From assembly GCA_022710585.1 (NCBI GenBank), contig JAKLGV010000015.1, positions 5,623-69,622 of the forward strand: a stretch of 64,000 nucleotides of DNA, written 5' to 3'. The notes below the pieces were generated by a model, which was not told the DNA's origin, did not search any database, and saw only the letters and a program-made list of their open reading frames with translations. Source of the stretch: Deltaproteobacteria bacterium. Lineage in GTDB: Bacteria > Desulfobacterota > Syntrophia > Syntrophales > Smithellaceae. Both the position numbers and the translations under genes were made by a program. This document shows, one piece after another, positions 9,548-35,273 of this stretch; position 1 is the stretch's first letter; each line of letters opens with the position of its first letter.

Positions 9548-9569
9548 GGTCCCCTCCCTCCCCGGAGGC

Positions 9570-16030: not shown

Positions 16031-16116
16031 ATTTGTTTTAATTGTGACAAGTCTCTTTCGGTATAACAATATTACTGGTACTTTTCGTCATCGTGCCACA
16101 GTCTCGATTACCGGTG

Positions 16117-17589: not shown

Positions 17590-17692
17590 GGTTTTATCAT
17601 ACACGAGATTGGCCTTTATGACTATACGATTTTCTGTTTTCGCCGGTTGACCAAACCGGACGTCTGCCGCTTTGTCGTCCACAAAATATTCA

Positions 17693-18355: not shown

Positions 18356-21300
18356 CTAAAATGATTTTTCATTAATCCACTGCGCCCCGTCACGAACCGA
18401 ATTCTGGTCAAACTTGAAGCGGAAGCGGACAAAAGGCCCCTGAGCGGTATAACTTGCGTCAGAAAAATCCTTATCTTCAAAGCCGAAGAAATTATATCCC
18501 AGACTCAGCCATGCATTTTGAGCAATGTTATATCCGACTGATAAACCGCCGCTGTAATCAAACACCGATGCGGACCACGAATGCAGGATGCTGCCCTGTA
18601 AACCGATATCCCAGTCTTTATTAATATCGTAACGGTGTTCCACACCCCAGAGATCCGTATAACCGCTGTAATCATCGCCATACTTTGTTTCCCGCCCGTA
18701 TTTTGCGCCGTAATGGAGAGAGAGCTGATGATGTTTAACCGGCCGGTAGTTCAACATCAAATTGTTGACAATTCTCCAGGAATCCGTATCGTCATTTCCG
18801 TCATTATCCTGTCTGTTAATGATTAAATCAAACCGGTTCAACGCCATCAATTTGGTTTCCGGCGGACGGTAGACCAGGCCGTAGCGCAGATCGGCGCTGG
18901 CGGTATCCGCGCCCGCGGATGAATTGACCTGGAATAACTGCAAACGTCCTGACCATGCCCAGTTTTGATCCACTTCTTTGACCAGACCGCTCATCAGACC
19001 CCATTTATCTTCCGATTCCGATGTCCGGTATTCCAGGCGGTTGTCCCACGTCAGACCTTTGACCTGATAGGTCGCTCCGCCGGATACAGCGGTAAAATCG
19101 TCACTGTTGCCGGATACGGAAACCACGTTGCCGGAAGCAGGCTGAACGTTATCATTGAACCGGTAGCTTTCCGATATGGTCTGGCTGCGCTCCAGTCCGC
19201 CATCGACTTTCCATTCCTTGTTGATCTGCCAGTTCTGCTTCATGCCGACATTGGCAAAAACACGCTCATCGTTTTCATTAAACTGCCGCTCCACGCTGCT
19301 GTTGACTTCGCCGCCTTTCCAGGGCGATGAACGCAGGCCAACCCGGGTGTTTTTGGTGTCGCTTTCCGAACCCCAGGTAAATTCCTGGGCGGCCAGCAGC
19401 GTGAACTGCTTGGTCACGGCGAGTTCGGCGCTGAGGGTGGTCCGCGTCGGAAAATCCACGTTTTCATTGCTGCCCACGGACTGGGCATGGTTGAGTCCCA
19501 GCGTCAAGCGATCATTCAACGTCACAACCTTCCCGCCCATCGTAATCTGATTGGACTTATTGTCGCTGCCGTCCTGAAGCTTGTCGGAAGCACGCAAGAA
19601 GCCCAGAGACGCTGTGTATTTCTTCGCATTATAATCAAACTTTCCTTCCATCAGATCACGTGTGGCATCGGTCATAAGATTGTCCTGACGATAGATATTG
19701 GTGCTTGCGCTGATCGTATCGGTGAAGCGGTATTTGCCCTCGATGCCGTATTTGCGCGTTCCCTCTTCGCTGCTCGGCTGCTGTCCCATGCCGAATCCTT
19801 CATCCTGTTCGCGGTAATAGGTCTTGATCTCCAGTTTCTTTGTGTTGCGCGACGCTTCCACCAGATAAGCGTTGCCATCGCGGCTTTCCGCGCCGGCATC
19901 GTACTTGCTTTTTGCGTACTCGGCGCGGACCTTTGTATTACTGTCTACATTGACGGAAACATCCGCGCCGTAAAGATCGCTGCTGCGATCGCCCTGCCCT
20001 TCGTGAATATATGTTCCGCCCGCCTTCATTTTATTGCCCGGCAGCTTGACACCGGCGCGTCCGCCGTACGTGTAGTCTTTTCCTTCCTGAGACCTGGTTT
20101 CATATTCCGCAACAATCGTTATCGGATTCATGTTCTCATCTCTGCTGAAAACAGGCTCCTTGAAGATGACTGAACCGGCGTCATAGTCAATCGAATAATC
20201 CGTAAAGCGGTTCAGAGTCCTCGAGGAAACCAGCACTTCGCTGCGGAAACGATCGCGCACCTCAATAGTAATTTTTTCCGACCCGGCCAGTATTTGCTTG
20301 CGGGAAAGCCTATACATTCCCGAGGTGCCGTCACCGGGAATTTCATCCCGGGTATAAATCTGATCCGTCTCGCTGACAAAAGCATTGACCTCATAATACC
20401 GGCCCTGCATTTCGGTTTTCACGCCCGTCATGCGTCGCCCGTAGCGGGAAAGTTCCGTAATGGTCAGTCCCGTATCAAAATCGCCGAAGAGCGCGTAAAA
20501 CTGCTTCCGTTCGATTTTCAGATACAGTTTTTTCGCGCTGGCCGCGTCGTACTGCTGTTGCGACGCATCACCGTAAAGCGTGAAATAGCTTTCCGGATTG
20601 ATGGTCTGGAACAAGGCGTTATTGGTGTCCGCTTTTGTCTTGGCGGTGTCATACGCCATCGTCAGAAGCCATTTGCCTTTGATCTGCCCCTTGGCAAAAA
20701 ACGCCAGACGGCCGTCCTGATAGAGCTTTTCTTCGAGATCGGCATGCTTGAGATTTTCCATGTTGCCGGAAACGGTATTATAGCCGACGGTCCCCTCACC
20801 CAGACCGACCAGAATCCAGTCGCGCATAATCGGCTGAACATACGTTTCCACTTCCGCGGTGACATTGTTGTAACCCAGAACAGCCCTGTACAGACCGCTG
20901 TTGGTCACCGGTTGAAATAAAATTTCTCCCTCTTTGCTCATCTGAACGACGGGATGGCTTCCCGATTTGGGTGGCAGCGCAAAAATATCCGGCTTTTTCA
21001 ACGGGACAAGCGTTCCTTCCCGAATCTCCAGGTCCGCGCTCGCCGGCATGACAACGCCACTGGCGTCATATAATTCCAAGATGATTTTGACCGGCGTTTT
21101 GCCGTCGGCCACATTGCCGTCTTCCGACTTCACGCGGATCGATGCAATTTCGCCGCTGCGCGTGACCGTGTGCGTTTTCTTGACGCGGGCGTTGCCGAAC
21201 GGATCCAGCCCTTGAATCTCCACGGTGTGCGGACCGGCTTTTCCGAAATCAACGCCGATATAGCTGTAAATCGCCTTGCCGGATACTTTATCCTTCATCG

Positions 21301-24300
21301 TGAAACCGATGCGATCTTTGGACACCTCCTGGCCGTCCACCAGCAGACGCGGGGTTAACAGAGAATTCAGACAGACGCGGACGCTCTGGATTTTATTGAC
21401 CAGAATATCTTTGTCCGCCGGAGAAATAATTCCTTCCGGTTCGGTAATCGTTTTTTCCGGCGTCTCCGCGCTGGCATCCGCCGGCGCATCCTTTGATGGA
21501 ACATCCGCCGCGGCTTTCTCGTCACGTTTCGGCGCGGCATCTTTCACCGCGGTCGTTTCCGCGCGCTGCTCGCCGCTTTGTTCCTTGACGACCCGCCAGA
21601 CAGCGCTGTCGCTGACGCTGCTGGAAACGATGTGGAGTTCCACCCGCCGGTTCAGTGCCCGTCCCTCACTGGTGCGGTTATCAGCAACCGGCTTTTCGCT
21701 CCCTCTGCCTGCCATAACCATTTTTTCCGGAGGCAGTTTGAGTTTATCCATCAGGTAACGTCCGACGCTGGAGGCGCGAGCCAGCGACAGCGCCCGGTTA
21801 TCAGCAAACTCTTTCCGGTTCTTCGGCGCGATCGGCATATTGTCCGTATAGCCGGTCACCTCGATTTTTTCGATGCGAACGCCGGCCAGGGATTGAGCCA
21901 GTTTATCCAGTTTCGCCCGGTCTTCATCATTCAGGGCGGCGCTCCGGACAGGAAAATGCGGCCGCAGGACGATATCCGGCAGTTGGGATGGTGTTTCTTT
22001 TTTATCCACCTGCAGAATGGTTTCCGCCGGCGGTGTGACAATTTCCGTTTTTGCCTCGCCCGCGGCAGTCAGATAGGCCTGCGTTACCAGCGTGCCCATC
22101 CTGGCTTCACCGGATGGCACAGCCATAAAGGTGATCTCGCGGCGCTGCCCGGCCGGCAAATCATTGAGCTGGAAGACCAGACCTGTTTTTTCTTTTTCCG
22201 AAGGATCAGCCATTTCAGCGCCATCCACCTGAGAGCTGCCTTTTTTGTAAATCACACCTTCCGGGAGAGCAATATTGATCTTCGGCGCGGCCACAGGCAG
22301 GGCGCTGCTCTTCACCGACACTTTGTAAATGATGGTTTCTTTGTCCAGCGTATTGGTCAGATCCAGAACAATCTCGCCTTTGACGGGAGCCGTCTTTTCC
22401 GGCGGTTTGGCTTTGGAACGGACATGGAAATCCGCGCGCCAGATGGTGCCGCCCTGCGTTTCAACAAACTGCGAAAATGAACGGCCGGCAAAACGGCTGT
22501 TTTCCGTACAGGCAAAAGGCGTAGAACCTTCGGGCAGCGAATCCAGATCCATCTGCACGACATGCAGGCCGGGACGGACACCCTCGAAATGATACAGACC
22601 CCGTTTATCAGTGATGGCGAATGTGCCGTCCTCCAGATAAATGCGAACGCCTTCAACGCCGGTAGCACCCTCGCCGGACTTGTCATTGCAGTCACCGGTG
22701 CTCACACGTCCCATCAGGACGGATCGGGTTTTCATCAAATCGTCCCTGATCTTGACCGTAACGCGCGCCCGGTTCGATTTTTCACCGGTCGCCGCGAAGG
22801 CAATGGCATTGTTGATCGCGTCACCGAGTTTTGTTCCCGCGGTCACTTCCGTCATATAATCAATGATCGCCGAACCTTCCTTCGCCAGGAACCCGACATT
22901 AAACGTCAGCGTCCGGCCGTCTTTGGAAATGGTCGGATTATCCATGGAGGCGCTGTTGAATTTTGCCGATCCTTTGCGGTACCGGAAACCCACCGGCATG
23001 ACATCGGTAATTTGAACGCCGTTGGCGCCCACTCTTGTGCTTCGATTGGCCACGGTCAGTTGATAGGGAATAAAATCGCCATAACCGGCCGTGTCCTTGC
23101 CGACGGTTTTTTGCAGCCAGAGTTCTACGGGGGCCTGATCAAGCGGAATATCAATCCGTACCGCCGGACCGGGATTGAGTGTAAAGGTCTCTCCCCGGGA
23201 ACCGTCAACAATATTAAACGGTGCGCCGGGTAATGTCTGGATAATTTCCGTCGCCACAATACTCGGGAAGGCATAACCGGGCGGCGGCTCCACAACAAAC
23301 TGATAACTGCCCGGGAAAACATACGGGAAACGGAAACCGCCTTCCGGAAACGTATAAACCCGCCCGCTGCTGTCGGTAACAGTGCCGCCGCTGGTTATCG
23401 TTGACGGATAAGCGCTGACGCCGTCATCGCCGAAAACGACAGCCGGCTGCCCGGTAGCGGTGTCAATGATGGTCACCTTCGCGCCATCAACCGGCAGACC
23501 TGTGGTGGTATCAAAAACAATACCGAGAGGATCCACCATAACCGCGGTAACCGAAGTATCCGTGCCATCCGCCACATCCACATAATTGATATAAAGCATC
23601 TCCCCATCTTTGACGGAGATGGTGCCGTTATACGTGGTCACCGTCGTATTGGCGGTAAACACATAGCCGACAAACACGCCCGTATTGGGTCCGGTTTCGG
23701 TCAGCCGGATGACTTCGACATCCCCGTTGACCTGATTTTTGACGGTTACAAAAACTGTTTCCCTCACCGTATTATCCAGATTCTGATCCAGATCCGTCAC
23801 CCGGATGAAAAGCGGTTCGCCCTGATGCAGCAACCGGCTGTCCGTCAAGGGCAGCGGATTGCTCAAATCCAGAGGCGTCGTTGTCCCCACGGGAACAGGC
23901 GACGTCATATTCACGAACTGACCGGCGGAGCCTCCGGAAAGATACGCGGATTGGAAAACATTAACTTGATCGGCTCCGGTAAGTTCCGGAGCATACGCTA
24001 ACGTTTCAATCGTTGAGGGTGTCCGGATAACAATCGTCACCGTCACCGACGACGATCCCTGTCCGATAAAAGCATTACTGTTAATCTTTGCGTTGTTCAC
24101 AACCTTATCAGCCTGGACGGGAGCGGCAAAAGTAAAAGCGGGAAGAACCAGAAGAGCAGATAAAACCGCTAAAACGGACAAGACAATCGTAAAATGACTC
24201 TGACAGGACCAGCGCCGTTTCCAACCGGAATTGAACAAAACACCACCGACCCCGCTTGCCATACAAGGCAAACGGGTCGGTTTTCCGGCCTTTCGGCCGG

Positions 24301-24340
24301 AAAACCGTCGGTGAAGTCTATGTAACCGGTTTAAAAGCAT
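18356..24340 (-). CDS. giant outer-membrane protein: DUF11/Cna-B-like passenger modules, OmpA peptidoglycan-binding domain and a large C-terminal beta-barrel
   Basis: Signal peptide ...LLVLPAFTFA/AP. Two DUF11-like modules (e.g. GDFIPYQLTVANRSTRVGANGVQITDVMPVGFRY). A CarboxypepD_reg/SdrD-B-like module (GVRIYLEDGTFAITDKRGLYHFEGVRPG). An OmpA domain (IEVTGYTDNMP...NRALSLARASSVGRYL...NRRVELHIV). The last 880 aa or so are alternating beta-strands ending FVRFRFKF...EKSF. The true start is probably internal (ATG 24262), because codons 10-22 of the long ORF are a perfect hairpin. Confidence 0.8.
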   Translation of the reverse strand: MLLNRLHRLHRRFSGRKAGKPTRLPCMASGVGGVLFNSGWKRRWSCQSHFTIVLSVLAVLSALLVLPAFTFAAPVQADKVVNNAKINSNAFIGQGSSSVTVTIVIRTPSTIETLAYAPELTGADQVNVFQSAYLSGGSAGQFVNMTSPVPVGTTTPLDLSNPLPLTDSRLLHQGEPLFIRVTDLDQNLDNTVRETVFVTVKNQVNGDVEVIRLTETGPNTGVFVGYVFTANTTVTTYNGTISVKDGEMLYINYVDVADGTDTSVTAVMVDPLGIVFDTTTGLPVDGAKVTIIDTATGQPAVVFGDDGVSAYPSTITSGGTVTDSSGRVYTFPEGGFRFPYVFPGSYQFVVEPPPGYAFPSIVATEIIQTLPGAPFNIVDGSRGETFTLNPGPAVRIDIPLDQAPVELWLQKTVGKDTAGYGDFIPYQLTVANRSTRVGANGVQITDVMPVGFRYRKGSAKFNSASMDNPTISKDGRTLTFNVGFLAKEGSAIIDYMTEVTAGTKLGDAINNAIAFAATGEKSNRARVTVKIRDDLMKTRSVLMGRVSTGDCNDKSGEGATGVEGVRIYLEDGTFAITDKRGLYHFEGVRPGLHVVQMDLDSLPEGSTPFACTENSRFAGRSFSQFVETQGGTIWRADFHVRSKAKPPEKTAPVKGEIVLDLTNTLDKETIIYKVSVKSSALPVAAPKINIALPEGVIYKKGSSQVDGAEMADPSEKEKTGLVFQLNDLPAGQRREITFMAVPSGEARMGTLVTQAYLTAAGEAKTEIVTPPAETILQVDKKETPSQLPDIVLRPHFPVRSAALNDEDRAKLDKLAQSLAGVRIEKIEVTGYTDNMPIAPKNRKEFADNRALSLARASSVGRYLMDKLKLPPEKMVMAGRGSEKPVADNRTSEGRALNRRVELHIVSSSVSDSAVWRVVKEQSGEQRAETTAVKDAAPKRDEKAAADVPSKDAPADASAETPEKTITEPEGIISPADKDILVNKIQSVRVCLNSLLTPRLLVDGQEVSKDRIGFTMKDKVSGKAIYSYIGVDFGKAGPHTVEIQGLDPFGNARVKKTHTVTRSGEIASIRVKSEDGNVADGKTPVKIILELYDASGVVMPASADLEIREGTLVPLKKPDIFALPPKSGSHPVVQMSKEGEILFQPVTNSGLYRAVLGYNNVTAEVETYVQPIMRDWILVGLGEGTVGYNTVSGNMENLKHADLEEKLYQDGRLAFFAKGQIKGKWLLTMAYDTAKTKADTNNALFQTINPESYFTLYGDASQQQYDAASAKKLYLKIERKQFYALFGDFDTGLTITELSRYGRRMTGVKTEMQGRYYEVNAFVSETDQIYTRDEIPGDGTSGMYRLSRKQILAGSEKITIEVRDRFRSEVLVSSRTLNRFTDYSIDYDAGSVIFKEPVFSRDENMNPITIVAEYETRSQEGKDYTYGGRAGVKLPGNKMKAGGTYIHEGQGDRSSDLYGADVSVNVDSNTKVRAEYAKSKYDAGAESRDGNAYLVEASRNTKKLEIKTYYREQDEGFGMGQQPSSEEGTRKYGIEGKYRFTDTISASTNIYRQDNLMTDATRDLMEGKFDYNAKKYTASLGFLRASDKLQDGSDNKSNQITMGGKVVTLNDRLTLGLNHAQSVGSNENVDFPTRTTLSAELAVTKQFTLLAAQEFTWGSESDTKNTRVGLRSSPWKGGEVNSSVERQFNENDERVFANVGMKQNWQINKEWKVDGGLERSQTISESYRFNDNVQPASGNVVSVSGNSDDFTAVSGGATYQVKGLTWDNRLEYRTSESEDKWGLMSGLVKEVDQNWAWSGRLQLFQVNSSAGADTASADLRYGLVYRPPETKLMALNRFDLIINRQDNDGNDDTDSWRIVNNLMLNYRPVKHHQLSLHYGAKYGRETKYGDDYSGYTDLWGVEHRYDINKDWDIGLQGSILHSWSASVFDYSGGLSVGYNIAQNAWLSLGYNFFGFEDKDFSDASYTAQGPFVRFRFKFDQNSVRDGAQWINEKSF
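24278..24307 (-). promoter_or_regulatory. perfect 13-bp stem-loop between the 399-aa subunit gene and the giant gene
   Basis: CGGTTTTCCGGCC-tttc-GGCCGGAAAACCG (GAAA tetraloop on the mRNA strand). No U-tract follows, so this is more likely an RNA stability, processing or attenuation element than a full terminator. Confidence 0.6.
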
Positions 24341-24363
24341 AAACGAAACACTGATCCCATCTC

Positions 24364-25563
24364 TTAGGGGTTAACTGTCGCCTGATAGAGCACAAGCACC
24401 CTGCTGCTCGCCGGAATCGTTCCACCGGCCGAACTCGTTGCTCCCTGGCCGATATACACCGTCAATGTGGGAGCGGCATACGTGGCCTGGTCATCACCCG
24501 ATGTTGCGGACAGCGTTGTCGGCACATTGGCCTCGTTGACATACGTCACTGCTTTTCCGCTATAGGAATCCGTTTTGAATGTCACAAACGTTGTCGGCAA
24601 CGCATCGGAGATCACAGACGCGGAAACGCCTCCCGATGTGCTGGTATTGGCCGCAACCAGGATGTACTCCAGCGTATCTCCGGGTTCCGCCGTCACACCG
24701 GCCGGATAATAATTGGTGGAATTATAGACATAAGCCACTCCCGTTCCGCTACCGGGCCTGGTGATGTTGCGCACATACTTGCTCAGATTGGCCACACCGC
24801 TGGTAAAGGTGTTGAGAATCGCCGGAGTCGAGGTAGCCGTGGCCGACGCATCCGTGGCTGATGTAACGGTCGCCGTGACAGAAACCGTGACATCGGTGCC
24901 GGGGGTAGTGATCGTGCCCGGCGTAACCGTGGCCTGGATCACCTGCCGTTCAGCAACCAGAACACCGGCAGCAGGCGCTGCGGATAGTGCCGAAGCAAGT
25001 GTGATAGTGGACGTACCGGTAGCATTATCCACGATACCGGTAACTATTCTGGCTTCACCATTGATGACGACTGTATCGCCTACAGCAATGCCGTTAACAC
25101 CGGGCACCTCGCCGGGCAGGTTGCCATCCGCGGGAACCACGATGACCGTGGCAGTCGATCCGGTGGTGGTCACCGACGCGCCCAGTGTTACTGTGGCTGT
25201 GGTCGGAGTAGCCGTGGCGCCGGTGGTATTGGTGGACCCCGTTACCGTCGTGGCAATGTTATAGGTATCCGGGCCATTGGCACCGGCCGTAACGGTAAAG
25301 CTGTCCGTCAGCGTGGCGCCAGAGCTGTATGATGTGCTCTGGTTCGGTCCCGGTACGATGGTCAATGCCGCCGGCACCAGGCTGACGGTCACCGTGACGC
25401 TGGCCGTGGCCGTTCGGGTACCGGAACCATCAAAGTAAGACAGTTGCGCCTGGTTGATAATCTGCGTGTTGGCCGCAATGTTCGCCCAGGCTGAAGCGGC
25501 TGACATAACGGCAAACAGCATGATAATCATCAAGCAGGCACATATTTTTTTGTGAATTTTCAT
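24364..25563 (-). CDS. secreted Thr/Ala/Val-rich DUF11-type protein (candidate fibre subunit, paralog of 25650..26786)
   Basis: The start is set at ATG 25563 (RBS AAAGGAG). Signal peptide MKIHKKICACLMIIMLFAVMSAASAWA. C-terminal DUF11-like module (AEPGDTLEYILVAANTSTSGGVSASVISDALPTTFV...). Collinear similarity to the 378-aa neighbour (GPDTY, TLGA and NGI..GD.V.I motifs). Confidence 0.8.
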   Translation of the reverse strand: MKIHKKICACLMIIMLFAVMSAASAWANIAANTQIINQAQLSYFDGSGTRTATASVTVTVSLVPAALTIVPGPNQSTSYSSGATLTDSFTVTAGANGPDTYNIATTVTGSTNTTGATATPTTATVTLGASVTTTGSTATVIVVPADGNLPGEVPGVNGIAVGDTVVINGEARIVTGIVDNATGTSTITLASALSAAPAAGVLVAERQVIQATVTPGTITTPGTDVTVSVTATVTSATDASATATSTPAILNTFTSGVANLSKYVRNITRPGSGTGVAYVYNSTNYYPAGVTAEPGDTLEYILVAANTSTSGGVSASVISDALPTTFVTFKTDSYSGKAVTYVNEANVPTTLSATSGDDQATYAAPTLTVYIGQGATSSAGGTIPASSRVLVLYQATVNP

Positions 25564-25602
25564 ATGTTTCTCCTTTAATGTTCTCCTTTTATAAAGTTTT
25601 TG

Positions 25603-25638
25603 ATGAGCAGAAGCGGTGGTATGGCCGCTTCTGCTCAT
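25603..25638 (-). promoter_or_regulatory. perfect 14-bp stem-loop between the 378-aa and 399-aa subunit genes
   Basis: ATGAGCAGAAGCGG-tggtatgg-CCGCTTCTGCTCAT, 12 nt downstream of the upstream gene's stop codon and upstream of the next gene's RBS. The ORF-track N-terminal extension MSRSGHTTASAH is simply this hairpin translated. Confidence 0.6.
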
Positions 25639-25649
25639 ACTCTAAAGAG

Positions 25650-26786
25650 TTAATTTACCGTGACCTGGAATGTTATTGTAGCCACTCCTGCAGGACTTAA
25701 AATACCGCTGGAAACCGCTCCGGCTGCACGGGCTGGATCATCGTCGTCAACCAGTAACCCCGCAATTAATGGCGAAGGATCGGCAACCCCGTCGTTGGCA
25801 ACGGTCTTGCCGTTGAGCCTCGTCGATTGATGTACATAAGTTGTGTAAGGCGGCAACGGGTCTGTTATGGTAACAACATTAGCATCGCTGCTGCCGGTAT
25901 TGGTCACAACGATGGTATAGGTTATCGTGTCACCGGGAGCCGCAGAGGCAGTACTCGCGGTCTTCTCAATCGTAAGGTTTGCCGGTGTTACTGTGGTTAC
26001 CGTCTCATCCGTATCGGCATCGCACGATCCGTCCGCTGTGGTCACAACCGTAATGGTTTGATTAGATGCCGCTGTTAACGCACCGGGATCAACCGCTACC
26101 GTAAAGGTCTGCTGCTCATAAATGGGATCGCCTGGATTAATAGCTGCCTGGAGCGCAGTATAAGGCGCTGTGGTATCTAAATTAATGGTCGACGTACCGC
26201 CGACTGTACCACCATTATCAGTAACGGTGCTGACTTTGTAAACATAGCTACCGATAACAATGAGGTCTCCGTTTTCAATGCCGTTGACTGAACTGTTGGA
26301 CCCTGCATCATTAGGCACCGTAATGGAAGTGGCGCCTATTGCCGCAGCCCCCGCCACCGTGGTAGCGCCCAGCGTGATGCTTGCGGTTGAGGGAGTGGCC
26401 GTCGAACCGCTGATACCGGCAGACTCCGCCGTGACAGCAGCGCTGATGGCATACGTGTCGGGACCATTGGACTGTGATGTCAAGGTATAGGTGTAAACCT
26501 CATTGGTCGCCGGATCCGTGGTGCCGTCACCAGGCGAACTTAATAACGGTGCAACGCAAACAAACTCAACCGTGACATCGACACTGTCGGATACCGCCGG
26601 CATGGCTGTACCCGCCGTATCATTGTAATTGACCGTCGCCGTGTTGCGGATCGTGGTGTAGGCCGCTGTTGAAGCCTGAGCCGCCTGTGGCAGGACAAAG
26701 GCCAGCAACGCCAGCAGTGTCAGACTGCAGACAAAAGCCTTTGACGCGGCCCTCCTGATGTTGATAAATCTTGTTTTCATATTCAT
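25650..26786 (-). CDS. secreted DUF11-domain protein (candidate fibre subunit)
   Basis: Signal peptide ...LPQAAQA/ST. The C-terminal canonical DUF11 module (PGDTITYTIVVTNTGSSDANVVTITDPLPPYTTYVHQSTRLNG...ATITFQVTVN) is closely similar to the C-terminus of the 1,074-aa protein. Confidence 0.85.
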   Translation of the reverse strand: MNMKTRFINIRRAASKAFVCSLTLLALLAFVLPQAAQASTAAYTTIRNTATVNYNDTAGTAMPAVSDSVDVTVEFVCVAPLLSSPGDGTTDPATNEVYTYTLTSQSNGPDTYAISAAVTAESAGISGSTATPSTASITLGATTVAGAAAIGATSITVPNDAGSNSSVNGIENGDLIVIGSYVYKVSTVTDNGGTVGGTSTINLDTTAPYTALQAAINPGDPIYEQQTFTVAVDPGALTAASNQTITVVTTADGSCDADTDETVTTVTPANLTIEKTASTASAAPGDTITYTIVVTNTGSSDANVVTITDPLPPYTTYVHQSTRLNGKTVANDGVADPSPLIAGLLVDDDDPARAAGAVSSGILSPAGVATITFQVTVN

Positions 26787-26950
26787 TCCTCCTTAAAAAT
26801 TAATTTCGTTTTTTTATCTTTTTTTTATTTTCATTAATGACTTATTTTTTACTCACTACCATTATCTTCATTTTGCATTCCCTCACCCGTCCATAAGCGC
26901 CTCCTTGATTTCTCCTTTTGTTGTTATATTCCTGAGACAGGACGTTCCTG

Positions 26951-27430
26951 TCATTTCACTTTCACCTTGAAGCCAACCTGACCTTTGCCGCCCTCGGGAA
27001 CTTTGGCAATGGTCCAGCGGATATTGGTGTATTGCTCGGGTGACGCGACTTTCTTTTCCACCTTTCCGCCCGGAAGCGTAATTTCGTAAGTCAGCAGGGA
27101 AGGTTTTTTAAACGTCTTGCCGCCGTCAATGGAAAACGTGACATCCGCATCGCTACCGAAGGCGCTGCCGTTAATATAGACCGTGCCTTTGGGAATCGGA
27201 TCATCCAGAACAGCGTTGGTTGCCGCTTCATTACCGGTATTGACGTAGCTGATGGTATAAATAACCACGTCACCGGAACTGATTTTAGTCACGGGCACCC
27301 TTTTGGTCGCATTATTGACTGTTACCTCTGTTTCCGCCTTCATGTTTACCGACAGAAGGGGTTTGGCCATCGCCTCCATCGCAAACATGAGCAAGCTCAT
27401 TGCCGCTAATAACGTAAAAATTTTCTTCAT
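26951..27430 (-). CDS. small secreted single-DUF11-domain protein
   Basis: Signal peptide MKKIFTLLAAMSLLMFAMEAMA/KP, then one module SGDVVIYTISYVNTGNEAATNAVLDDPIPKGTVYINGS...GQVGFKVKVK. Total 159 aa. Confidence 0.8.
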   Translation of the reverse strand: MKKIFTLLAAMSLLMFAMEAMAKPLLSVNMKAETEVTVNNATKRVPVTKISSGDVVIYTISYVNTGNEAATNAVLDDPIPKGTVYINGSAFGSDADVTFSIDGGKTFKKPSLLTYEITLPGGKVEKKVASPEQYTNIRWTIAKVPEGGKGQVGFKVKVK

Positions 27431-27548
27431 AACATCCTCCTTTCAGACACCTGTTAAAATATTTTTGATAAATCAGTAGAGTAAGCTTCTACTCATGCTC
27501 TTCTTGCCCATTATTTTTTTCACCTCCATATCATTTTATTTTGCACGC

Positions 27549-30500
27549 TTAATTAATCGTCACCTGAAACGTTATGGTTGCGCGTCCGACGACCGGCGGC
27601 CCGGCGCTGTAGGGCGGCAGAATGCCGGTTGCCGCCGCTCCCGCGCTGCGGCTTGAATTGTCGTCAATCAGAATTCCCGCGATCAGCGGCAGGGTGGCGC
27701 CGTCCCCGGCAACGGTAATGCCGTTAAGACGGGTGGAATTGGCCACATACGTCGTATATTGCGGCAGGGGGTCCGTGACTCTTGCATTAATCGCGTTGCC
27801 GGTACCGGTATTGGTAACAACAATGCTATAGGTTACGGTTTGTCCGGAACTTACCGGATTGGCGCTGGCGGACTTGACAATGGTGAGATTCGGTTGAGGA
27901 ACTATTACCCTCATTGTCGCATAAGCGGTATTGGTCACAGTTCCTTCCGTACCTTCAGTTGCTGTGACGCTGACCGACCAGTTGCCGGTGGGAGAAGTTG
28001 GCACGGTATATTGGTATTCATAGGTTTTTGTCAAACTTGGAGTCTCCGTCCCTGTAGCGACAAGCGTCATGGAGGCAGCATTGACTATGGTTGTTCCACC
28101 GGGATTTTTTATGGTGATTTTCGGGGCGTTGACAATATCATAACTGCCGAACGGGTCGCTCACCACCGCCCGAATATAAACGGTACTTCCGGTCGTCACG
28201 TAGGAAAGGAGAGTGCCTCCCGAATAGGCGGCATCGTAATAATTGATGGAATCAACATGAACAACCGTCGTTGCCGGGAGGTCAACACGGGAAGCAGCGC
28301 CGACGGTGGCCGAATACGGATATACGCGTGTGGCAACGGCGCCTGCAGTTTGAGAAACCGTAAGATTCCAGGTACTCCCCTGCGGACAGGTCACGTTGGC
28401 TGTATTGAGGGTGAAGGTGTACGCAGTCTGTGTATTATTGTTCATGGTGATATTTCGTGACGCTGTCATAATCGTGGGATCTGATGAGCACTTGAGATCA
28501 ACCTGGATGGTTCTTGTGCTGTTGGTATTGGTGTCTCTTCTCATATTTAAAACAACCGGGAATGTCGCACTAACCGACGAGTTAATCGCTATTGCCGCCG
28601 CCGCGGCCGGGTCCATAACCCATGTCCGGGAAGTCGTGGTATTGACCACTGTATATCCGGAAGTTGTTGTATTGGGTGTACGGGAAAGTTTCCACGACGG
28701 GCTTGAAGTGTTGTCATACAGATAAAGTCTCTTGGTTCCCGTGCCGGTCGTCGTACCGGCAACCGTGACCACCGGCGCCGTCGCTGTTGAACCCGTCCCG
28801 CTGGGCGTGTGTGTAATGATTGCCGTATTGGTAATCGTTGTTCCCGCCGCTGACGAGCTGGAAATATCCGCAGAATAAACAATTGTCACGGAACCGTTTG
28901 CGGGAACGGTAATTCCGGTAGCACTCAAGGTTGGAGCGCTGTAGGTGCAGGTAGCGCCGGTCGGGCAACTGGTTATGGTTACGTTTGTTAAATCCGTATC
29001 AATAATATCGGAAATCGAAACGTCGGTTGCCTCATTGCCTTTGGTTTCCGCAATGGTGATGGTATATTGCAGTGTATCGCCTGCTTCATACTCGCCGCCG
29101 TTGATATCAACCAGCGTTTTGGCGGAGGTGGATAAATCCGGCACGCACTCGGCGCCGGGTTCAATGCCGGGGGGCGCGGATGAATCAAACGCGGCATAAC
29201 CGCCGGACGAACTGGTAGAACCATAAGTATCATTCGCGGTTGTTGTCCTTCCGCTGACACCAGCGGCATAGGACATGGCAATCCCGAGAGTTGAGGGAGA
29301 GTAGGCAATAAACCCGCCGCTGCCGCCGCCGCCGGGTCCATGACGTTCACCCGGATATGTGGCCCCGGGTGCCTGAGATCGCCAGGCGTTGCCTCCATCC
29401 CCGCCGTTGACAGAAGCGGAGGCGGAACCTCCGGTATAGGAGTAGATAACAATGGACCCTCCGGCGCCGCCGCCGCCGGAACTGTCGTTTAGAACATTAT
29501 ATGCCGAACCGCCATTGGCCGTGATTGTTCCCGAACCGGTAATATAATTTGCCCTGATGATGACAATGCCGCCTCCGGGAGCGCCGCTGCTGCAAGCTCC
29601 GGCTCCAGAATTGCAGGCAATACCTGGAGGCGTGGGGGGCAGGTATGTTGAATTGTCCGCAGTGCCGTTATTGCTGGTACCGGCGCCGCCGCCGCCGCCC
29701 ATAACGATGCGATTAAAAGCGAGTCCGGTAACACCGTCACCGCCTTCACCACCGGTAGTGAGATTGGTGCTCCAGGAATTTCCGCCTTTCGCGCCGGCTG
29801 CGTAGTTGCCTCCTCCTCCGCCGCCGGTGTTCTCATCATTGTTTGCCGCATCCGCGTCTGTGCCGCCGCCACCCGCATTTCCGGGCGCGCCGCGGGCATA
29901 GGAAGCGTTTGAATTTGTTCCGTCCGGATAGCCGCTGCCACCTGTCACCTGTACCGGCGCGCCGTCAAAAGTTGCCGGCCTGTTCATGTAATACGGGGTG
30001 CCTGCTATTCCTTCGCCCTTGGATCCGTTGGCGCCGTTTGTGTAGGAGGTGCGATAGTCAGTATTCGCGCCGGTTCCGCCGTTAATCGAACGTCCATATC
30101 CGCCACGGAAACCGGCGCCATCGGCGGTGACGGTTCCATTGATCGTCAGGGTTCCGGCCACATCCATGGCCACAACACCGCCGACGCTGCCGTTCCAGTT
30201 GAGCGCCGACACCGTTCCGGACACTGTAGCCGAGGAGTATTGGGGAACACGAATGACCTGATAGCGACTCTGGCCATTGGTTCCCGAAGCCGCGCGATTG
30301 CGGTAACTGTAGGTCAGGCCGCTGGTAATACCGACAAACCCTCCGGCAACGGCACCAGACGCCCTTGCAAACTCATAATAGCCGGTCTGATTGAGATTTG
30401 TAGAACCTCTTCCGGTGCCTGAACCACTACCATAACTGCTGTTGTTACTGTAGTTTATGTCGGCATCCTGCATCTGAATGATTAATAGCAGATCTCCGGC

Positions 30501-30773
30501 GGCAATCGCCGGACCGCTGCCCAACGGAGAACCAACCGGAATGGATGTTGCGCCTGCAGAGACCGATGCCGTGCCGGGATAGTAGGTATTGATAACACCG
30601 GAAGGAGGCCCGGTACCGTCATTTCCGGGCGTGGCACAGTCAGCAAATGATTTTCCGGTGAATATCAGTTGGCAGAAAATGTAAGTTAATGTAAGGAAAA
30701 CCAGCGCAGAGTATATATGCTTATTTAATGGATTTCTATGCTTGAAAATGGCCATCACTCTTTTACGATTCAT
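27549..30773 (-). CDS. large secreted adhesin-like protein: N-terminal globular domain, Gly-rich beta-helix-like region, Ig-like/DUF11 modules
   Basis: Signal peptide ...FTGKSFA/DCATPGNDG. A poly-Gly/Ala/Ser-rich stretch (GGGGGNYAAGAKGGN, GGGGGAGTSNNG, GGGGAGGSIVIY, GPGGGGSGGFIAY). An internal DUF11-like module (AGDTLQYTITIAETKGNEATDVSISDIID). A terminal DUF11 module ending ATITFQVTIN. Confidence 0.85.
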   Translation of the reverse strand: MNRKRVMAIFKHRNPLNKHIYSALVFLTLTYIFCQLIFTGKSFADCATPGNDGTGPPSGVINTYYPGTASVSAGATSIPVGSPLGSGPAIAAGDLLLIIQMQDADINYSNNSSYGSGSGTGRGSTNLNQTGYYEFARASGAVAGGFVGITSGLTYSYRNRAASGTNGQSRYQVIRVPQYSSATVSGTVSALNWNGSVGGVVAMDVAGTLTINGTVTADGAGFRGGYGRSINGGTGANTDYRTSYTNGANGSKGEGIAGTPYYMNRPATFDGAPVQVTGGSGYPDGTNSNASYARGAPGNAGGGGTDADAANNDENTGGGGGGNYAAGAKGGNSWSTNLTTGGEGGDGVTGLAFNRIVMGGGGGAGTSNNGTADNSTYLPPTPPGIACNSGAGACSSGAPGGGIVIIRANYITGSGTITANGGSAYNVLNDSSGGGGAGGSIVIYSYTGGSASASVNGGDGGNAWRSQAPGATYPGERHGPGGGGSGGFIAYSPSTLGIAMSYAAGVSGRTTTANDTYGSTSSSGGYAAFDSSAPPGIEPGAECVPDLSTSAKTLVDINGGEYEAGDTLQYTITIAETKGNEATDVSISDIIDTDLTNVTITSCPTGATCTYSAPTLSATGITVPANGSVTIVYSADISSSSAAGTTITNTAIITHTPSGTGSTATAPVVTVAGTTTGTGTKRLYLYDNTSSPSWKLSRTPNTTTSGYTVVNTTTSRTWVMDPAAAAAIAINSSVSATFPVVLNMRRDTNTNSTRTIQVDLKCSSDPTIMTASRNITMNNNTQTAYTFTLNTANVTCPQGSTWNLTVSQTAGAVATRVYPYSATVGAASRVDLPATTVVHVDSINYYDAAYSGGTLLSYVTTGSTVYIRAVVSDPFGSYDIVNAPKITIKNPGGTTIVNAASMTLVATGTETPSLTKTYEYQYTVPTSPTGNWSVSVTATEGTEGTVTNTAYATMRVIVPQPNLTIVKSASANPVSSGQTVTYSIVVTNTGTGNAINARVTDPLPQYTTYVANSTRLNGITVAGDGATLPLIAGILIDDNSSRSAGAAATGILPPYSAGPPVVGRATITFQVTIN

Positions 30774-30899
30774 TTTTCACCGCTTTCTGGTTGGGCTTCT
30801 CGAAAATCAGTACTATTCATTTGGCATCAATTTATTACGCTATTCCCAATTTCCTGAACATTTCAAATCATTTGTCGAAGGTTTTGTGGCGATCTCTCC

Positions 30900-31319
30900 T
30901 TATGAATTGAAAAGTTTACCGGCAGCCGTTTGACATTCAGAACAAACGCCGTAAACATTGACTGCTATTTTTTGAATGTCATAATCATGTTTCTGATCTT
31001 CAGAAATCAATAACTGACGGTCTACATCAATGTTAATATCAACAACCTTTCCGCAGGAAGTGCAAATCAGGTGATCGTGAGGTGTGACTGTTGAATCATA
31101 CCTCTTTGAATCTGTTTGCACCATCACAGGCAGTTCCACGATATGTCCTCTCTTTTTAAACAGTTCCATCGTGTTGTAAACTGTCGTTAAGGAAATATTG
31201 GATAGTTGCTTGGAAACGTGTTGATAAACTTCTTTAATGCTCGGATGAGATTTGTTGTCCTTGATATAATTATAGATGGCTAATCTCTGTGCGGTTTTTT
31301 GCGGTTCTTTCTGTTTCAC
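30900..31319 (-). CDS. Fur-family metalloregulator (Fur/PerR/Zur-like)
   Basis: Winged-helix N-terminus (RLAIYNYIKDNKSHPSIKEVYQHV), an HDH motif and two CxxC pairs (CTSCGKV...CSEC). GTG start 31319 with RBS GGAGG 6 nt upstream. Confidence 0.85.
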   Translation of the reverse strand: MKQKEPQKTAQRLAIYNYIKDNKSHPSIKEVYQHVSKQLSNISLTTVYNTMELFKKRGHIVELPVMVQTDSKRYDSTVTPHDHLICTSCGKVVDINIDVDRQLLISEDQKHDYDIQKIAVNVYGVCSECQTAAGKLFNS

Positions 31320-31544: not shown

Positions 31545-31572
31545 AACACCGCTATTTAAAAAGGTGGACATC

Positions 31573-32244: not shown

Positions 32245-32278
32245 ACAAAAATAACCCTGGGAATATTGGAGGTAGGCT

Positions 32279-35251: not shown

Positions 35252-35273
35252 ATCAGAGATAGATTAATCATTC

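Follow-up and report, generated by a model that had tools for sequence, protein, structure and literature searches.

The locus and its conserved gene module

The window, meaning the whole analysed stretch of 64,000 nucleotides, had been described in a first-pass annotation as carrying six co-directional minus-strand genes, and all six open reading frames (ORFs) were found where it had placed them:

30900..31319, minus strand: Fur-family (PerR-like) regulator, 139 aa; Pfam FUR 89 bits, best NCBIfam models PerR
27549..30773, minus strand: tip-adhesin candidate, 1,074 aa; DUF11 49.2 bits
26951..27430, minus strand: 159-aa protein with a single truncated CLIPPER-like domain; DUF11 33.3 bits, profile positions 5-56 only
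25650..26786, minus strand: 378-aa subunit, proposed shaft; ORF, DUF11 48.2 bits
24364..25563, minus strand: 399-aa subunit, proposed adaptor/terminator; ORF
18356..24340, minus strand: giant protein, 1,994 aa; ORF, Pfam and NCBIfam

The ORF of the 399-aa subunit spans 24364-25638 and corresponds to 424 aa; the 399 aa are counted from the ATG at 25563. A public copy of the giant protein begins at Met27 and comprises 1,968 aa, and Met27 is possibly the true start.

With the Fur-family gene excluded, the other five genes form a module that is kept in at least 582 GTDB species genomes from several phyla. Homologues of the giant protein were located at 582 loci among GTDB species genomes, and at least 599 such homologues are annotated merely as "OmpA family" or "TIGR01451 repeat protein". 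Conservation of the gene neighbourhood was assessed in 54 homologous loci, each with at least 3 kb of upstream sequence. A 159-type gene is present in 53 of them, and in 52 of the 54 at least one gene for a mid-size subunit lies between the 159-type gene and that of the giant protein; some loci contain one mid-size subunit only. This synteny spans Desulfobacterota, Myxococcota, Nitrospirota, Gammaproteobacteria, Zetaproteobacteria, Eisenbacteria, and Latescibacterota. The arrangement of the five-gene set is far from one expected by chance, and it bears out the composition originally suggested, namely a tip adhesin, a small protein, mid-size subunits, and a giant outer-membrane protein.

The Fur-family regulator had been regarded as the head of the system, but this linkage is not conserved: the gene neighbours the module in 3 of 54 loci, one of them the Smithella locus L005, where it is positioned downstream of the giant protein. 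The Fur/PerR gene is a neighbour and lies outside the conserved module. The flanks of the module are unrelated, with glycogen metabolism downstream, and a TetR gene and a glycyl-radical enzyme upstream.

All five structural proteins carry Sec signal peptides, as read from their sequences and as previously assigned. These are of the signal peptidase I type (AQA/S, AWA/N, AMA/K, SFA/D). Median identities amount to 47-50% for the giant and the 159-aa protein and to 37-40% for the subunits, and the adhesin heads are variable. With the giant and the 159-aa protein conserved and the subunits and adhesin heads variable, this is the pattern expected for machinery versus exposed parts. The earlier view that none of the module's parts comes from a known pilus pathway is supported. 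In Pfam and NCBIfam searches, sortase signals, T9SS C-terminal domains, autotransporters, and TPS signatures were absent from the module proteins, and no match to an usher, chaperone, secretin, or ATPase was obtained in the locus proteins.

Incomplete C-terminal domains and N-terminal hairpins

Searches with the DUF11 profile yielded matches above threshold in the 378-, 159-, and 1,074-aa proteins and in the giant protein, in agreement with the modules initially recognised. The 399-aa protein has no Pfam match by itself and is connected to the family only via a cis-complete homologue (P0015), the acceptor domain of which passes DUF11 with 27.0 bits (cutoff 24.6).

The C-terminal CLIPPER (DUF11) domains of the 1,074-, 378-, and 399-aa proteins stop short of the last two strands. 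The C-terminal domain of the 159-aa protein is cut short in like manner. Where C-terminal domains match Pfam DUF11, the match breaks off at positions 56-65 of the 114-position profile, one strand before the end of the protein. In the 1,074-, 378-, and 399-aa proteins, the truncated domain retains the isopeptide Lys in strand 1 and the catalytic Asp, and lacks the strand bearing Asn. While the three residues do not occur together within any of the terminal domains, they do so in one domain of the giant protein:

22787..23122, minus strand: complete CLIPPER/DUF11 domain, giant aa 407-518; PF01345, 35.0 bits, profile positions 2-100

With Lys, Asp, and Asn all in one chain, this domain ("...ITDVMP...AINNAIAFA...RARVTVKI") serves as an internal reference for a complete CLIPPER domain.

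In the 378-aa subunit, the signal peptide (aa 1-38) is followed by a donor hairpin (aa 39-75, with Asn48), an Ig-like body, and a C-terminal acceptor CLIPPER domain, termed type A (aa 266-378; Lys275, Asp309), which terminates in "...ATITFQVTVN". The DUF11 match covers aa 271-335 and only profile positions 2-65 of 114. Lys and Asp are conserved in 89 of 89 homologues each, the donor Asn in 88, and the same C-terminal position is reached by 88 of the 89. The 399-aa subunit shares the donor and body with its 378-aa paralogue and differs in the C-terminal domain. It is composed of a signal peptide (aa 1-27), a donor hairpin (aa 28-63, with Asn37), the paralogous body, and a type-B acceptor (aa 256-399; Lys262, Asp320) terminating in "...RVLVLYQATVNP". 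Lys and Asp of the 399-type acceptor are at least 90% conserved, with a joint loss in loci L004 and L034.

The 1,074-aa adhesin begins with a signal peptide and a head, followed by a Gly-rich region, a complete internal CLIPPER domain at about aa 549-653, and more Ig-like modules. At its C-terminus lies a type-A acceptor (aa 959-1074; Lys967, Asp1001) sharing 57% identity with the acceptor of the 378-aa protein, and a donor hairpin is absent. The head (aa 59-311) is related to the N-terminal domain of AgmC, with a score for NF047640 of 120.9 bits, which is below the cutoff of 275. Adhesins sampled at other loci vary in their heads and are positioned up- or downstream of the giant protein; where readable, nearly all terminate in an acceptor-type domain.

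The missing hairpin with its near-invariant Asn is found at the start of the mature 378-aa, 399-aa, and giant proteins, right after the signal peptide. Directly behind the signal peptide, 70 of 71 mid-size subunits carry the donor motif "(G/A)(T/N)x-I-x-N-x-A-x-V-x-Y ... VTVTV"; its frequency elsewhere is 2 of 60 among 159-type proteins, 1 of 21 among adhesins, and 38 of 522 among other signal-peptide-like ORFs. In the giant protein it corresponds to the following feature:

24026..24124, minus strand: giant donor hairpin at the mature N-terminus, aa 73-105 (APVQADKVVNNAKINS...SSSVTVTIVI), with Asn82 as candidate isopeptide residue

The hairpin motif is present after the signal peptide in nearly all giants and in all phyla sampled (48/58 by a strict heuristic).

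Seven homologues (P0008, P0011, P0015, P0016, P0019, P0028, and P0031) have the 399-type subunit fused in frame to the giant protein. The junction reads "...VLVLYQVNVN-NPVQGDKIVNSAQLSS...VTTVIRT"; here the mature N-terminus of the giant succeeds the 399 C-terminus without a gap. Since the two are directly joined in the fusions, both pieces constitute one domain. P0011, P0015, and P0016 contain tandem copies of the C-terminal domain, with a hairpin after each. When the 399 C-terminal domain and the giant donor were combined in a chimera, a DUF7927 match was obtained across the junction, which appears only with the donor added. At the level of sequence, the fusions demonstrate pairing of the 399 type with the giant, and of no other pair. 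Given this pairing, the 399 type has the appearance of a terminator or adaptor. The first-pass annotation had taken it together with the 378-aa protein as abundant-looking subunits, a view that their differing acceptors and this pairing do not support.

Pairing of the 378-aa donor with type-A acceptors is suggested by similarity. Adding a donor to the 378 C-terminal domain extended the DUF11 match from profile positions 2-65 to 2-100, with a small gain of 2-5 bits, and adding one to the C-terminal domain of the 1,074-aa protein lowered the score from 44.7 to 41.0 bits. A chimera of C-terminal domain and donor was also aligned to the CLIPPER structure 9IFR, in which K715-N806 is the bonded pair of the triad (PMC12617251). 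In this alignment the Lys of the acceptor matches K715 and the Asn of the donor matches N806; the second piece of the alignment scores 0.7 bits, which is not significant by itself, and the Asp is one position off from the published numbering.

In an alignment of 61 orthologues, the 159-aa protein shows neither a conserved isopeptide Lys nor a conserved Asp. It also lacks a donor hairpin, and the tandem form P0301 comprises two copies with no hairpin between them. It would take a strand and give none, which speaks against the adaptor role first assigned to it. With a median identity of 47% it is, together with the giant, the best-conserved part of the module. Conservation on a par with the giant is more in keeping with an assembly factor or cap than with a chain link, and the 159-aa protein would most likely either assist assembly in the periplasm or cap donor hairpins non-covalently. 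Two parts, the adhesin and the 159-aa protein, have an acceptor and no donor, and a linear chain can accommodate only one such end.

The giant protein and its predicted barrel

The giant protein is made up of a signal peptide, the donor hairpin, a conserved N-terminal Ig-like region, an OmpA domain, an Ala/Pro/Lys-rich linker, two Ig-like domains, and a large C-terminal β-barrel. From the OmpA domain onwards it includes the following features:

21647..21955, minus strand: OmpA-like peptidoglycan-binding domain, giant aa 796-898; PF00691 63.8 bits, cutoff 27.2
20831..21355, minus strand: two Ig-like β-sandwich domains, giant aa 996-1170, between the OmpA linker and the barrel; AF2
18416..20704, minus strand: predicted very large β-barrel, giant aa 1213-1975 (approximately); AF2, DSSP

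The OmpA domain recognised in the first-pass annotation scores above the gathering threshold of PF00691, and peptidoglycan binding is predicted. Its sequence matches in the PDB are domains of MotB, OmpA, YfiB, and TssL. Some giant homologues lack the OmpA domain and retain the barrel. Matches to SdrD_B and CarboxypepD_reg in the giant are below threshold. The segment aa 996-1170 has no Pfam match; in the AF2 model m25d07ec3ba31 it corresponds to residues 1-175, with a pLDDT of about 75-87. The N-terminal region of the giant is conserved, with a median identity of 45%. This is unusual for an exposed stalk, and the region may therefore stay in the periplasm.

The AF2 model of the giant C-terminus shows a barrel-like fold at moderate confidence (pLDDT 70.9, pTM 0.56). 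DSSP assigns 32 long strands at aa 1406-1975 and about seven more before them. The large barrel proposed earlier is thereby retained as a fold of at least 32 strands, with its start moved from aa 1115 to near aa 1213. A small β-rich insert at about aa 1342-1393 could form a plug. The protein terminates in "GPFVRFRFKF", a strand typical of outer-membrane proteins. Foldseek searches with the barrel returned generic large barrels alone (SlpA, TonB-dependent transporters, SprA, LptD, MtrB, FimD), with TM-scores of at most 0.30, and the sole Pfam match at E up to 10 is a weak one to OMP_b-brl (E 0.018). Neither search placed the barrel in a known family. With a median identity of 50% over 86 loci, the barrel is the best-conserved part of the module.

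Proposed assembly and comparison with known systems

The preferred interpretation, with a probability of about 0.6, is a split-CLIPPER surface fibre or chain on a diderm cell, with the giant protein as its anchor. The exported components other than the giant would each terminate in a CLIPPER-type Ig-like domain minus its last two strands, and the N-terminal hairpin of the incoming component would complete the C-terminal domain of the previous one. With the acceptor at the C-terminus and the missing hairpin at the next N-terminus, assembly would proceed head to tail. Since complementation would unite Lys, Asp, and Asn, an intermolecular isopeptide bond could form without an enzyme, and such Lys-Asn bonds probably lock the joints. 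The first-pass annotation had anticipated an isopeptide-stabilised DUF11 fibre in a diderm; its direction was right, although it missed the split domain with the Asn hairpin on the next component. In the literature searched, no description of such a pilus system was found, consistent with the system having been put forward as undescribed.

Assembly is proposed to take place in four steps. The tip would be the 1,074-aa adhesin, which has a type-A acceptor but lacks a donor. The 378-aa subunit, with both a donor and a type-A acceptor, would add to the adhesin and to itself, giving rise to the shaft. The 399-aa subunit, with a similar donor and a type-B acceptor, would then terminate the shaft. 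Lastly, the N-terminal hairpin of the giant would fit type B, fixing the fibre to the giant, the OmpA domain of which would hold the assembly to peptidoglycan while the barrel, with its 32 strands or more, would be embedded in the outer membrane. Judging by the model, the width of the barrel may suffice for an export channel for folded Ig-like domains.

Export through the barrel is disputed by the reading that the giant is only an anchor or envelope tether and not a pore, with the subunits crossing the outer membrane otherwise or the chain staying periplasmic. This is considered unlikely, although it is the likeliest of the alternatives. The combination of a barrel and a peptidoglycan-binding domain is known from Deinococcus SlpA, the top Foldseek match, and the presence of an OmpA domain, the machinery-like conservation of the N-terminal region, and the fact that no plug or substrate-binding domain was identified in the giant all suit a tether. 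However, the TM-scores to SlpA are about 0.2 and reflect generic barrel similarity, and the barrel persists in homologues devoid of the OmpA domain. Furthermore, no other secretion component is conserved at the locus in any phylum sampled, and a barrel with 32 or more strands is of a size similar to SprA, the translocon by which type 9 secretion moves folded proteins.

A finite stitched adhesin has a somewhat smaller chance of being correct. Here, the adhesin, the 378- and 399-aa proteins, and the giant would be exported separately, joined 1:1:1:1 by strand complementation into one long modular adhesin, and anchored to peptidoglycan. The fusions indicate that evolution can merge the pieces, as in ordinary OmpA-anchored fibrillar adhesins (PMC12617251), and the loci with a single mid-size subunit are in keeping with it, self-polymerisation of the 378-aa protein being a conjecture. 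The similarity of the 378 and adhesin acceptors stands against this: at 57% identity, a donor that binds the adhesin should bind the 378-aa protein too, which makes self-addition hard to avoid. Two paralogues with unlike acceptors also fit a shaft and a terminator.

Another reading takes the proteins as CLIPPER proteins that are secreted or reside in the outer membrane independently of one another, in which the N-terminal motif merely provides the first strands of the protein's own first domain and no complementation in trans occurs. This is improbable. The AF2 model of the 378-aa monomer is very confident (pLDDT 95.7, pTM 0.85), N-terminus included (hairpin pLDDT 89-97), and the Pfam gains of the chimeras are small, as such a reading would have it. 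Yet in the fusions the giant hairpin comes right behind the C-terminal domain of the 399 type, and each tandem repeat has its hairpin at the end of the domain and not at the start. Moreover, the acceptors lack the Asn strand of complete CLIPPER domains but keep invariant Lys and Asp, and the Asn of the donor hardly ever varies.

That the module is a divergent form of a chaperone-usher, type V, or autotransporter system is highly improbable. The operon logic is alike (tip, subunits, outer-membrane protein) and FimD is among the generic Foldseek barrel matches, but no PapD-like chaperone, usher, lipobox, or autotransporter profile match was obtained (barrel scanned to E 10), no Foldseek TM-score exceeds 0.30, and the subunit fold is CLIPPER (CnaA-like) and not pilin.

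The split-CLIPPER fibre proposed here nevertheless resembles chaperone-usher pili (type 1/P; FimH-FimG-FimF-FimA(n)-FimI on FimD) in its logic, a likeness already pointed out in the first-pass annotation and strengthened by the truncated C-terminal domains, the N-terminal hairpins, and the fusions that make one domain of both. In those pili, an incomplete Ig-like fold is completed by the next N-terminal extension, the tip adhesin comes first, growth occurs at the base, a terminator subunit is used, and the operon also codes for a large outer-membrane barrel, much as would apply here. An incomplete Ig fold completed by the next N-terminus, as it appears from the sequences, is a way of working and not membership of the chaperone-usher family. 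A PapD-like chaperone (PF00345/PF02753) is absent from the six proteins and from the called genes of homologous loci (Pfam/NCBIfam), and no match to the PF00577 usher was obtained in the barrel region, scanned to E 10. Whereas chaperone-usher subunits lack a single G strand, a two-strand hairpin of a CnaA-like CLIPPER domain is missing here; the joint is predicted to be covalent, and the last donor would be the barrel protein's own N-terminus. The chaperone-usher barrel has 24 strands, compared with at least 32 plus an OmpA domain in the giant.

Type V pili of Bacteroidota (FimA/Mfa1 with the Mfa2/FimB anchor) likewise employ strand exchange without a chaperone or usher and a terminator or anchor at the end. 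Their pilins are proteolysis-primed lipoproteins with C-terminal strand donors, whereas the putative donor here is N-terminal, the lipobox is absent, and the fold is a different one; type V pilin profiles gave no Pfam/NCBIfam match in the locus proteins. No match to autotransporter or inverse-autotransporter profiles was found either, and the AF2 barrel has at least 32 long strands versus 12.

Gram-positive sortase-dependent pili share covalently joined Ig-like pilins, isopeptide chemistry, and the order of tip adhesin, shaft, and base with the assembly proposed here. No sortase is encoded in the 64,000-nt window, and the C-termini ("...QVTVN", "...QATVNP", "...KVKVK") have no LPXTG motif or hydrophobic tail. 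The present system would differ in operating on diderm cells, without transpeptidation to a pilin-motif Lys, and with an OmpA anchor instead of linkage to lipid II.

The archaeal thread filament (Saci_0406; PMC9715654) is, by its description, similar in that Sec-exported subunits are joined head to tail by donor-strand complementation. A sortase-free intermolecular isopeptide bond appears to reinforce the joint, comparable to the bond proposed here, and links the N-terminal α-amino group of Asp24 to Asn57 of subunit n+2 (PMC9715654). In the split CLIPPER domain, by contrast, a Lys-Asn pair and the catalytic Asp would lie inside one reconstituted domain, and the subunit fold differs. Threads belong to archaea and involve neither an outer membrane nor any barrel or anchor to peptidoglycan.

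The CLIPPER/DUF11 domains of fibrillar adhesins (PMC12617251; 9IFR) have the family, the positions of Lys, Asp, and Asn, and the role in a force- and protease-resistant stalk in common with those described here, and an OmpA-like anchor is also found in these adhesins (PMC12617251). In those adhesins the triad belongs to a single chain and serves to stabilise a single domain, whereas the domain considered here is shared between the products of two genes and the bond would therefore connect separate chains.

This is also the principle of SpyTag/SpyCatcher and related systems (PMC6539128), in which a peptide with one reactive residue completes a truncated Ig-like domain with the other two, and the bond forms spontaneously. 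SpyTag/SpyCatcher is engineered and derived from CnaB2, with the reactive Asp on the tag (PMC6539128), whereas the system proposed here would be natural and CnaA-like, with the Asn on the donor, and would serve an ordered assembly of several components. If the bond forms, the module would represent a natural counterpart of SpyTag/SpyCatcher.

Gene content and conservation of the module

The first-pass annotation had proposed a surface-fibre and adhesin system headed by a Fur-family regulator, and its six minus-strand ORFs were recovered as described by the ORF calls. In searches against Pfam and NCBIfam, DUF11, the domain now called CLIPPER, scored above threshold in the 378-, 159- and 1,074-aa proteins and in the giant of 1,994 aa, which contains one such domain together with the expected OmpA domain. 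The 399-aa protein alone matched no profile in either database, and the SdrD_B and CarboxypepD_reg matches of the giant were sub-threshold.

Scanning a single genome for each GTDB species yielded at least 582 confirmed loci in Desulfobacterota, Myxococcota, Nitrospirota, Gamma- and Zetaproteobacteria, Eisenbacteria and Latescibacterota. Carriers that can be cultured include Geomobilimonas luticola JCM 17780, Geomonas silvestris, Geobacter sp. AOG1 and Desulfosarcina alkanivorans PL12. Among the matches listed, the nearest relatives are Smithella/Syntrophales assemblies, which makes a syntrophic member of the Desulfobacterota the probable source of the window. For the giant, at least 599 homologues were counted, annotated as no more than 'OmpA family protein' or 'uncharacterized repeat protein (TIGR01451 family)'. 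Their best-conserved part is the C-terminal 1,000 residues, with 46-85% identity among the 120 homologues listed.

Gene content was established from gene calls in five loci and ORF analysis of 86 loci. The same gene set recurs in the loci analysed, and its common order runs from a protein of ~160 aa through one to three proteins of middle size to the giant. The gene for a large variable adhesin lies ahead of the small gene in some loci and behind the giant in others. Where the giant has at least 3 kb of upstream sequence, the small gene is present in 53 and a mid-size gene in 52 of 54 loci, locus counts being slightly redundant, with a few contigs entered twice. The module is almost certainly conserved. 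The regulator keeps its Fur-family identity, with PerR models as the nearest, and loses its place at the head of the system: it occurs in only three of the 54 loci and lies downstream of the giant in the homologous locus L005. It was therefore rejected as a conserved component and is regarded as a lineage neighbour, with local regulation of the module in this lineage being possible.

Both flanks are unrelated to the module, with glycogen metabolism genes downstream and, upstream, genes for a TetR regulator, a glycyl-radical enzyme and the activase of that enzyme. The adhesin gene and the Fur-family gene are separated by 126 bp (30774-30899). A promoter and terminator scan and an Rfam search gave nothing decisive.

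Features surrounding the module in the window
2937-17682, large glycogen/glucan metabolism cluster: ROK glucokinase, GlgC-like nucleotidyltransferase, phosphoglucomutase, alpha-amylase family protein, glycogen phosphorylase, starch/glycogen synthase, branching enzyme, 4-alpha-glucanotransferase
18965-23233, plus strand, ORFs of 121-300 aa antisense inside the giant gene
31564-36361, adjoining the module and divergent from it: TetR regulator, 990-aa glycyl-radical (PFL-like) enzyme, radical-SAM activase
38342-56060, minus strand, abundance of outer-membrane and exported proteins: small OMP_b-brl proteins, FadL/TodX-type transporter, Lnb_N protein, MetA-pathway-type outer-membrane protein, DUF4410 protein; also a sulfatase with a radical-SAM/SPASM maturase
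39788-41740, minus strand, large protein (650 aa) without Pfam match
52457-54778, minus strand, large protein (773 aa) without Pfam match

The TetR, glycyl-radical enzyme and activase genes also lie beside the module in the Smithella-like loci L005 (1-2566) and L006 (1-2845), and local gene order is therefore kept within the lineage. The antisense ORFs are most likely artefacts of coding-strand composition.

Truncated CLIPPER domains and donor hairpins

The giant contains a complete CLIPPER domain (aa 407-518), whose Asn strand and last strand read '...GDAINNAIAFA...SNRARVTVKI'. In the C-terminal domains of the 1,074-, 378- and 159-aa proteins, Pfam coverage is limited to profile positions 2-65 of 114, and the chain stops one strand past the match. 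The two strands absent from these acceptors are located at the N-terminus of the mature chain in the 378-aa protein, the 399-aa protein and the giant, where they form a donor hairpin with a candidate isopeptide Asn.

Donor hairpins of the window, and occurrence of the donor motif after the signal peptide in homologous loci
378-aa protein, 'TTIRNTATVNY...SDSVDVTVEFV'
399-aa protein, 'NTQIINQAQLSY...ASVTVTVSLV'
Giant, 'DKVVNNAKINS...SSSVTVTIVI'
Mid-size subunits, motif in 70/71
Giants, motif in 48/58 by a strict heuristic, by eye in nearly all
159-type proteins, motif in 2/60
Adhesins, motif in 1/21
Other signal-peptide-like ORFs, motif in 38/522

Seven homologues of the giant (P0008, P0011, P0015, P0016, P0019, P0028 and P0031) reach 2,272-2,790 aa owing to in-frame fusion of a 399-type module to their N-terminus. 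The sequence at the fusion junction is '...GKRVLVLYQVNVN-NPVQGDKIVNSAQLSS...SAVAVTTVIRTASVLELLTYAP'. The 399-aa protein of the window ends in '...RVLVLYQATVNP', followed by the stop codon, and past its signal peptide the giant starts with 'APVQADKVVNNAKINS...SSVTVTIVIRTPSTIETLAYAP'. The fusion therefore corresponds to a 399 C-terminus joined to the mature N-terminus of a giant. In P0011, P0015 and P0016 the 399 C-terminal domain is also repeated in tandem in cis, and such a hairpin closes every copy before the next domain. Together, the fusions and tandem copies show that hairpin and truncated domain are one folding unit, in which the hairpin terminates a domain and does not begin one. Fused giants, including those of loci L022 (5587-13603) and L010 (6805-12985), span 2,059-2,790 aa, some with extra tandem C-terminal copies; evolution shifts freely between fused and split forms of one joint. 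In Pfam, the cis domain of P0015 exceeds the DUF11 threshold. The C-terminal domain of the window's 399-aa protein matches no isopeptide domain by itself, and when joined to the donor of the giant it gives a DUF7927 match spanning the junction. Complementation in trans between the 399-type C-terminus and the N-terminus of the giant is very probable.

At the remaining joints, artificial chimeras were scored with Pfam. Adding any of the three donors to the 378 C-terminal domain lengthened the DUF11 match from profile positions 2-65 to 2-100 and raised its score by 2-5 bits, and the score of the adhesin C-terminal domain dropped in a donor chimera. These small gains count as supporting only, the natural fusions being the stronger test. 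An AF2 model of the mature 378-aa protein (89 sequences) reached a pLDDT of 95.7 and a pTM of 0.85, with a pLDDT of 89-97 in the N-terminal hairpin. AF2 often docks the strand of strand-exchange pilins onto the C-terminal domain of the same protein, and the hairpin of this model may be placed likewise. Foldseek matched this model to generic multi-Ig proteins only, including pilin fusions and isopeptide domains, and mutual information across the 89 sequences was dominated by subfamily signal. The same split-domain principle probably operates at the joints of the acceptor type shared by the 378- and 1,074-aa proteins (type A).

In the CLIPPER crystal structure 9IFR, an intramolecular bond connects Lys715 and Asn806, with Asp748 as the catalyst (PMC12617251). 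Alignment of the 378 C-terminal domain, fused to its own donor, with 9IFR places the Lys of 'LTIEK' on K715 and the Asn of 'TIRNTATV' on N806, the second segment being in register, though not significant alone. By count, the Asp of 'ITDPLP' aligns with the Asp adjacent to position 748. Among the 378-aa homologues, Lys and Asp are each conserved in 89/89 and the donor Asn in 88/89, and all but one of the 89 have the same C-terminal end position. At least 90% of the 399 family retain the Lys ('TKYVRN') and the Asp ('VISDALP'), and the adhesin has Lys967 and Asp1001. In the window, the candidate residues are Lys275, Asp309 and donor Asn48 of the 378-aa protein, Lys262 and Asp320 of the 399-aa protein, and donor Asn82 of the giant. 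Two 399-type proteins (L004, 8719-9937; L034, 5677-6895) jointly replace Lys by Ser and Asp by Glu, with the donor Asn of the giant retained; this joint may be a non-covalent variant. Overall, a covalent bond is moderately likely.

The giant, the small protein and the adhesin head

The longest ORF of the giant adds 26 basic residues (aa 1-26, 24265-24340) before Met27, at which a public copy of 1,968 aa begins. Either start results in an unusually long n-region ahead of the hydrophobic core of the signal peptide. Residues 996-1994 were modelled with AF2 from a 48-sequence alignment (mean pLDDT 70.9, pTM 0.56). The model retains the very large barrel suggested earlier and shifts its start from about residue 1115, as Ig-like structure extends to 1170.

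Parts of the giant in the AF2 model
aa 996-1170, two Ig-like domains
Between the Ig-like pair and the insert, a poorly predicted stretch, then about 7 strands
~aa 1342-1393, small beta-rich insert
To aa 1975, 32 long antiparallel strands

The chain ends in an outer-membrane-type terminal strand. The barrel was searched with Pfam and NCBIfam under permissive thresholds, its sequence was compared with the PDB, and its AF2 model was submitted to Foldseek. Pfam returned a weak OMP_b-brl match and nothing else. Foldseek returned generic large barrels only (SlpA, TonB-dependent transporters, SprA, LptD, MtrB and FimD), with E-values of 1e-8 to 1e-4 and TM-scores of at most 0.30. Membership of the usher, LptD, BamA or autotransporter families, which would have spoken against the original proposal, was looked for and not found; these identities, along with SprA, were rejected. 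As modelled, the barrel is very large and outside described families.

The order of parts in the giant (donor hairpin, Ig-like region, OmpA domain, flexible linker, Ig-like pair, barrel) allows one consistent topology. The N-terminal region could thread the barrel lumen, with the OmpA domain beneath it in the periplasm on peptidoglycan, and fibre load would pass to the cell wall via this domain. Since the N-terminal region is well conserved, it may instead remain periplasmic. No further secretion gene is conserved at the homologous loci analysed, and the odds that the modelled barrel is the export pore are put at slightly under even.

The 159-aa protein consists of one truncated CLIPPER-like domain, with neither a donor hairpin nor a conserved Lys or Asp column. 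Its median identity of 47% is level with that of the giant, compared with 37-40% for the subunits; the adhesin head is detectable in 9 loci only. Against 1.84 billion representatives, the 159-aa protein mostly retrieved multi-repeat CLIPPER giants whose similarity is confined to the generic first half of the domain; the informative matches were ~160-aa orthologues and one tandem form. In P0301 (319 aa), a natural tandem, two 159-type domains follow one another with no intervening Asn hairpin, and the domain is therefore still truncated when duplicated. The 159-aa protein could alternatively tip fibres that have no adhesin. A role as periplasmic factor is favoured because a linear chain has one acceptor-only end, which is taken by the adhesin. 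The 159-aa protein would then hold donor hairpins non-covalently, either acting as a decoy acceptor or capping the N-terminus of the giant, and is tentatively assigned as an assembly factor.

For the head of the adhesin (aa 59-311; gene 27549-30773, minus strand), the match is to AgmC, a gliding protein of Myxococcus, in its N-terminal domain (NF047640), at 120.9 bits and thus below the cutoff of 275. Its start, 'C-x-NPG-x-DGP...INSYYPG', is shared with large adhesins downstream of Geobacter-type giants (L012, L016, L018 and L031). The literature searched held nothing relevant on AgmC.

Proposed assembly and comparison with known systems

The 378- and 399-aa proteins are paralogous in donor hairpin and body (39% identity) and differ in their C-terminal domains. 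The C-terminal domain of the 378-aa protein shares 57% identity with that of the adhesin (type A), and that of the 399-aa protein (type B) is paired with the donor of the giant by the fusions. The 378 and 399 donors are closer to each other than either is to the donor of the giant. The simplest pairing scheme we infer is adhesin-378-399-giant. The adhesin, with its type A acceptor, would form the tip. The 378-aa protein, with donor and type A acceptor, would join the adhesin and then itself, building a shaft, and the 399-aa protein, with a similar donor and a type B acceptor, would end it. Insertion of the giant's N-terminal donor into type B would fix the fibre. The main alternative is a finite 1:1:1:1 chain, over which a polymeric shaft is slightly favoured.

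Taken together, we give a probability of roughly 0.4 to an unrecognised class of diderm pilus, polymerised through split CLIPPER domains with an autocatalytic intermolecular Lys-Asn lock. The giant would be exporter (a barrel pore of at least 32 strands), terminator (its own N-terminus being the last 'subunit') and load transfer to peptidoglycan through OmpA, and the small Lys-less acceptor would be a periplasmic chaperone for donor hairpins.

Few pilus pathways are known in diderms, namely chaperone-usher, type IV, type V, curli and conjugative pili, and covalent pili are regarded as a sortase-dependent Gram-positive trait. If the proposal is true, envelope biology would gain an assembly principle, that of a widespread and probably covalent fibre made without sortase, with split isopeptide domains as joints and one giant barrel protein as anchor and likely pore. 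It would also explain thousands of genes labelled only 'OmpA family' or 'TIGR01451 repeat protein'. The carriers have environmental weight (syntrophs, Geobacter relatives, sulfate reducers and Nitrospirota), and cell-cell and cell-mineral attachment is central to them. Furthermore, type A and type B acceptors, each with its own donor, would be natural orthogonal protein-ligation pairs.

The literature searched, whose coverage is incomplete so that a prior account is possible, holds no description of the module or of a split CLIPPER domain. Among systems that assemble pili and adhesins, we rate the module, known here from computation, as categorically new. It lacks every component that defines the chaperone-usher, type V, sortase and autotransporter systems. 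Its working principle also operates in chaperone-usher and type V pili, in TasA and in archaeal bundling pili. The closest is the archaeal thread, where strand complementation is accompanied by an apparent isopeptide bond between subunits (PMC9715654). The predicted chemistry is that of intramolecular CLIPPER domains, and the CLIPPER survey describes intramolecular bonds only (PMC12617251); here the bond would be formed between chains, as in the engineered SpyTag/SpyCatcher. The adhesin-378-399-giant order is analogous to that of FimH...FimA(n)-FimI on the usher.
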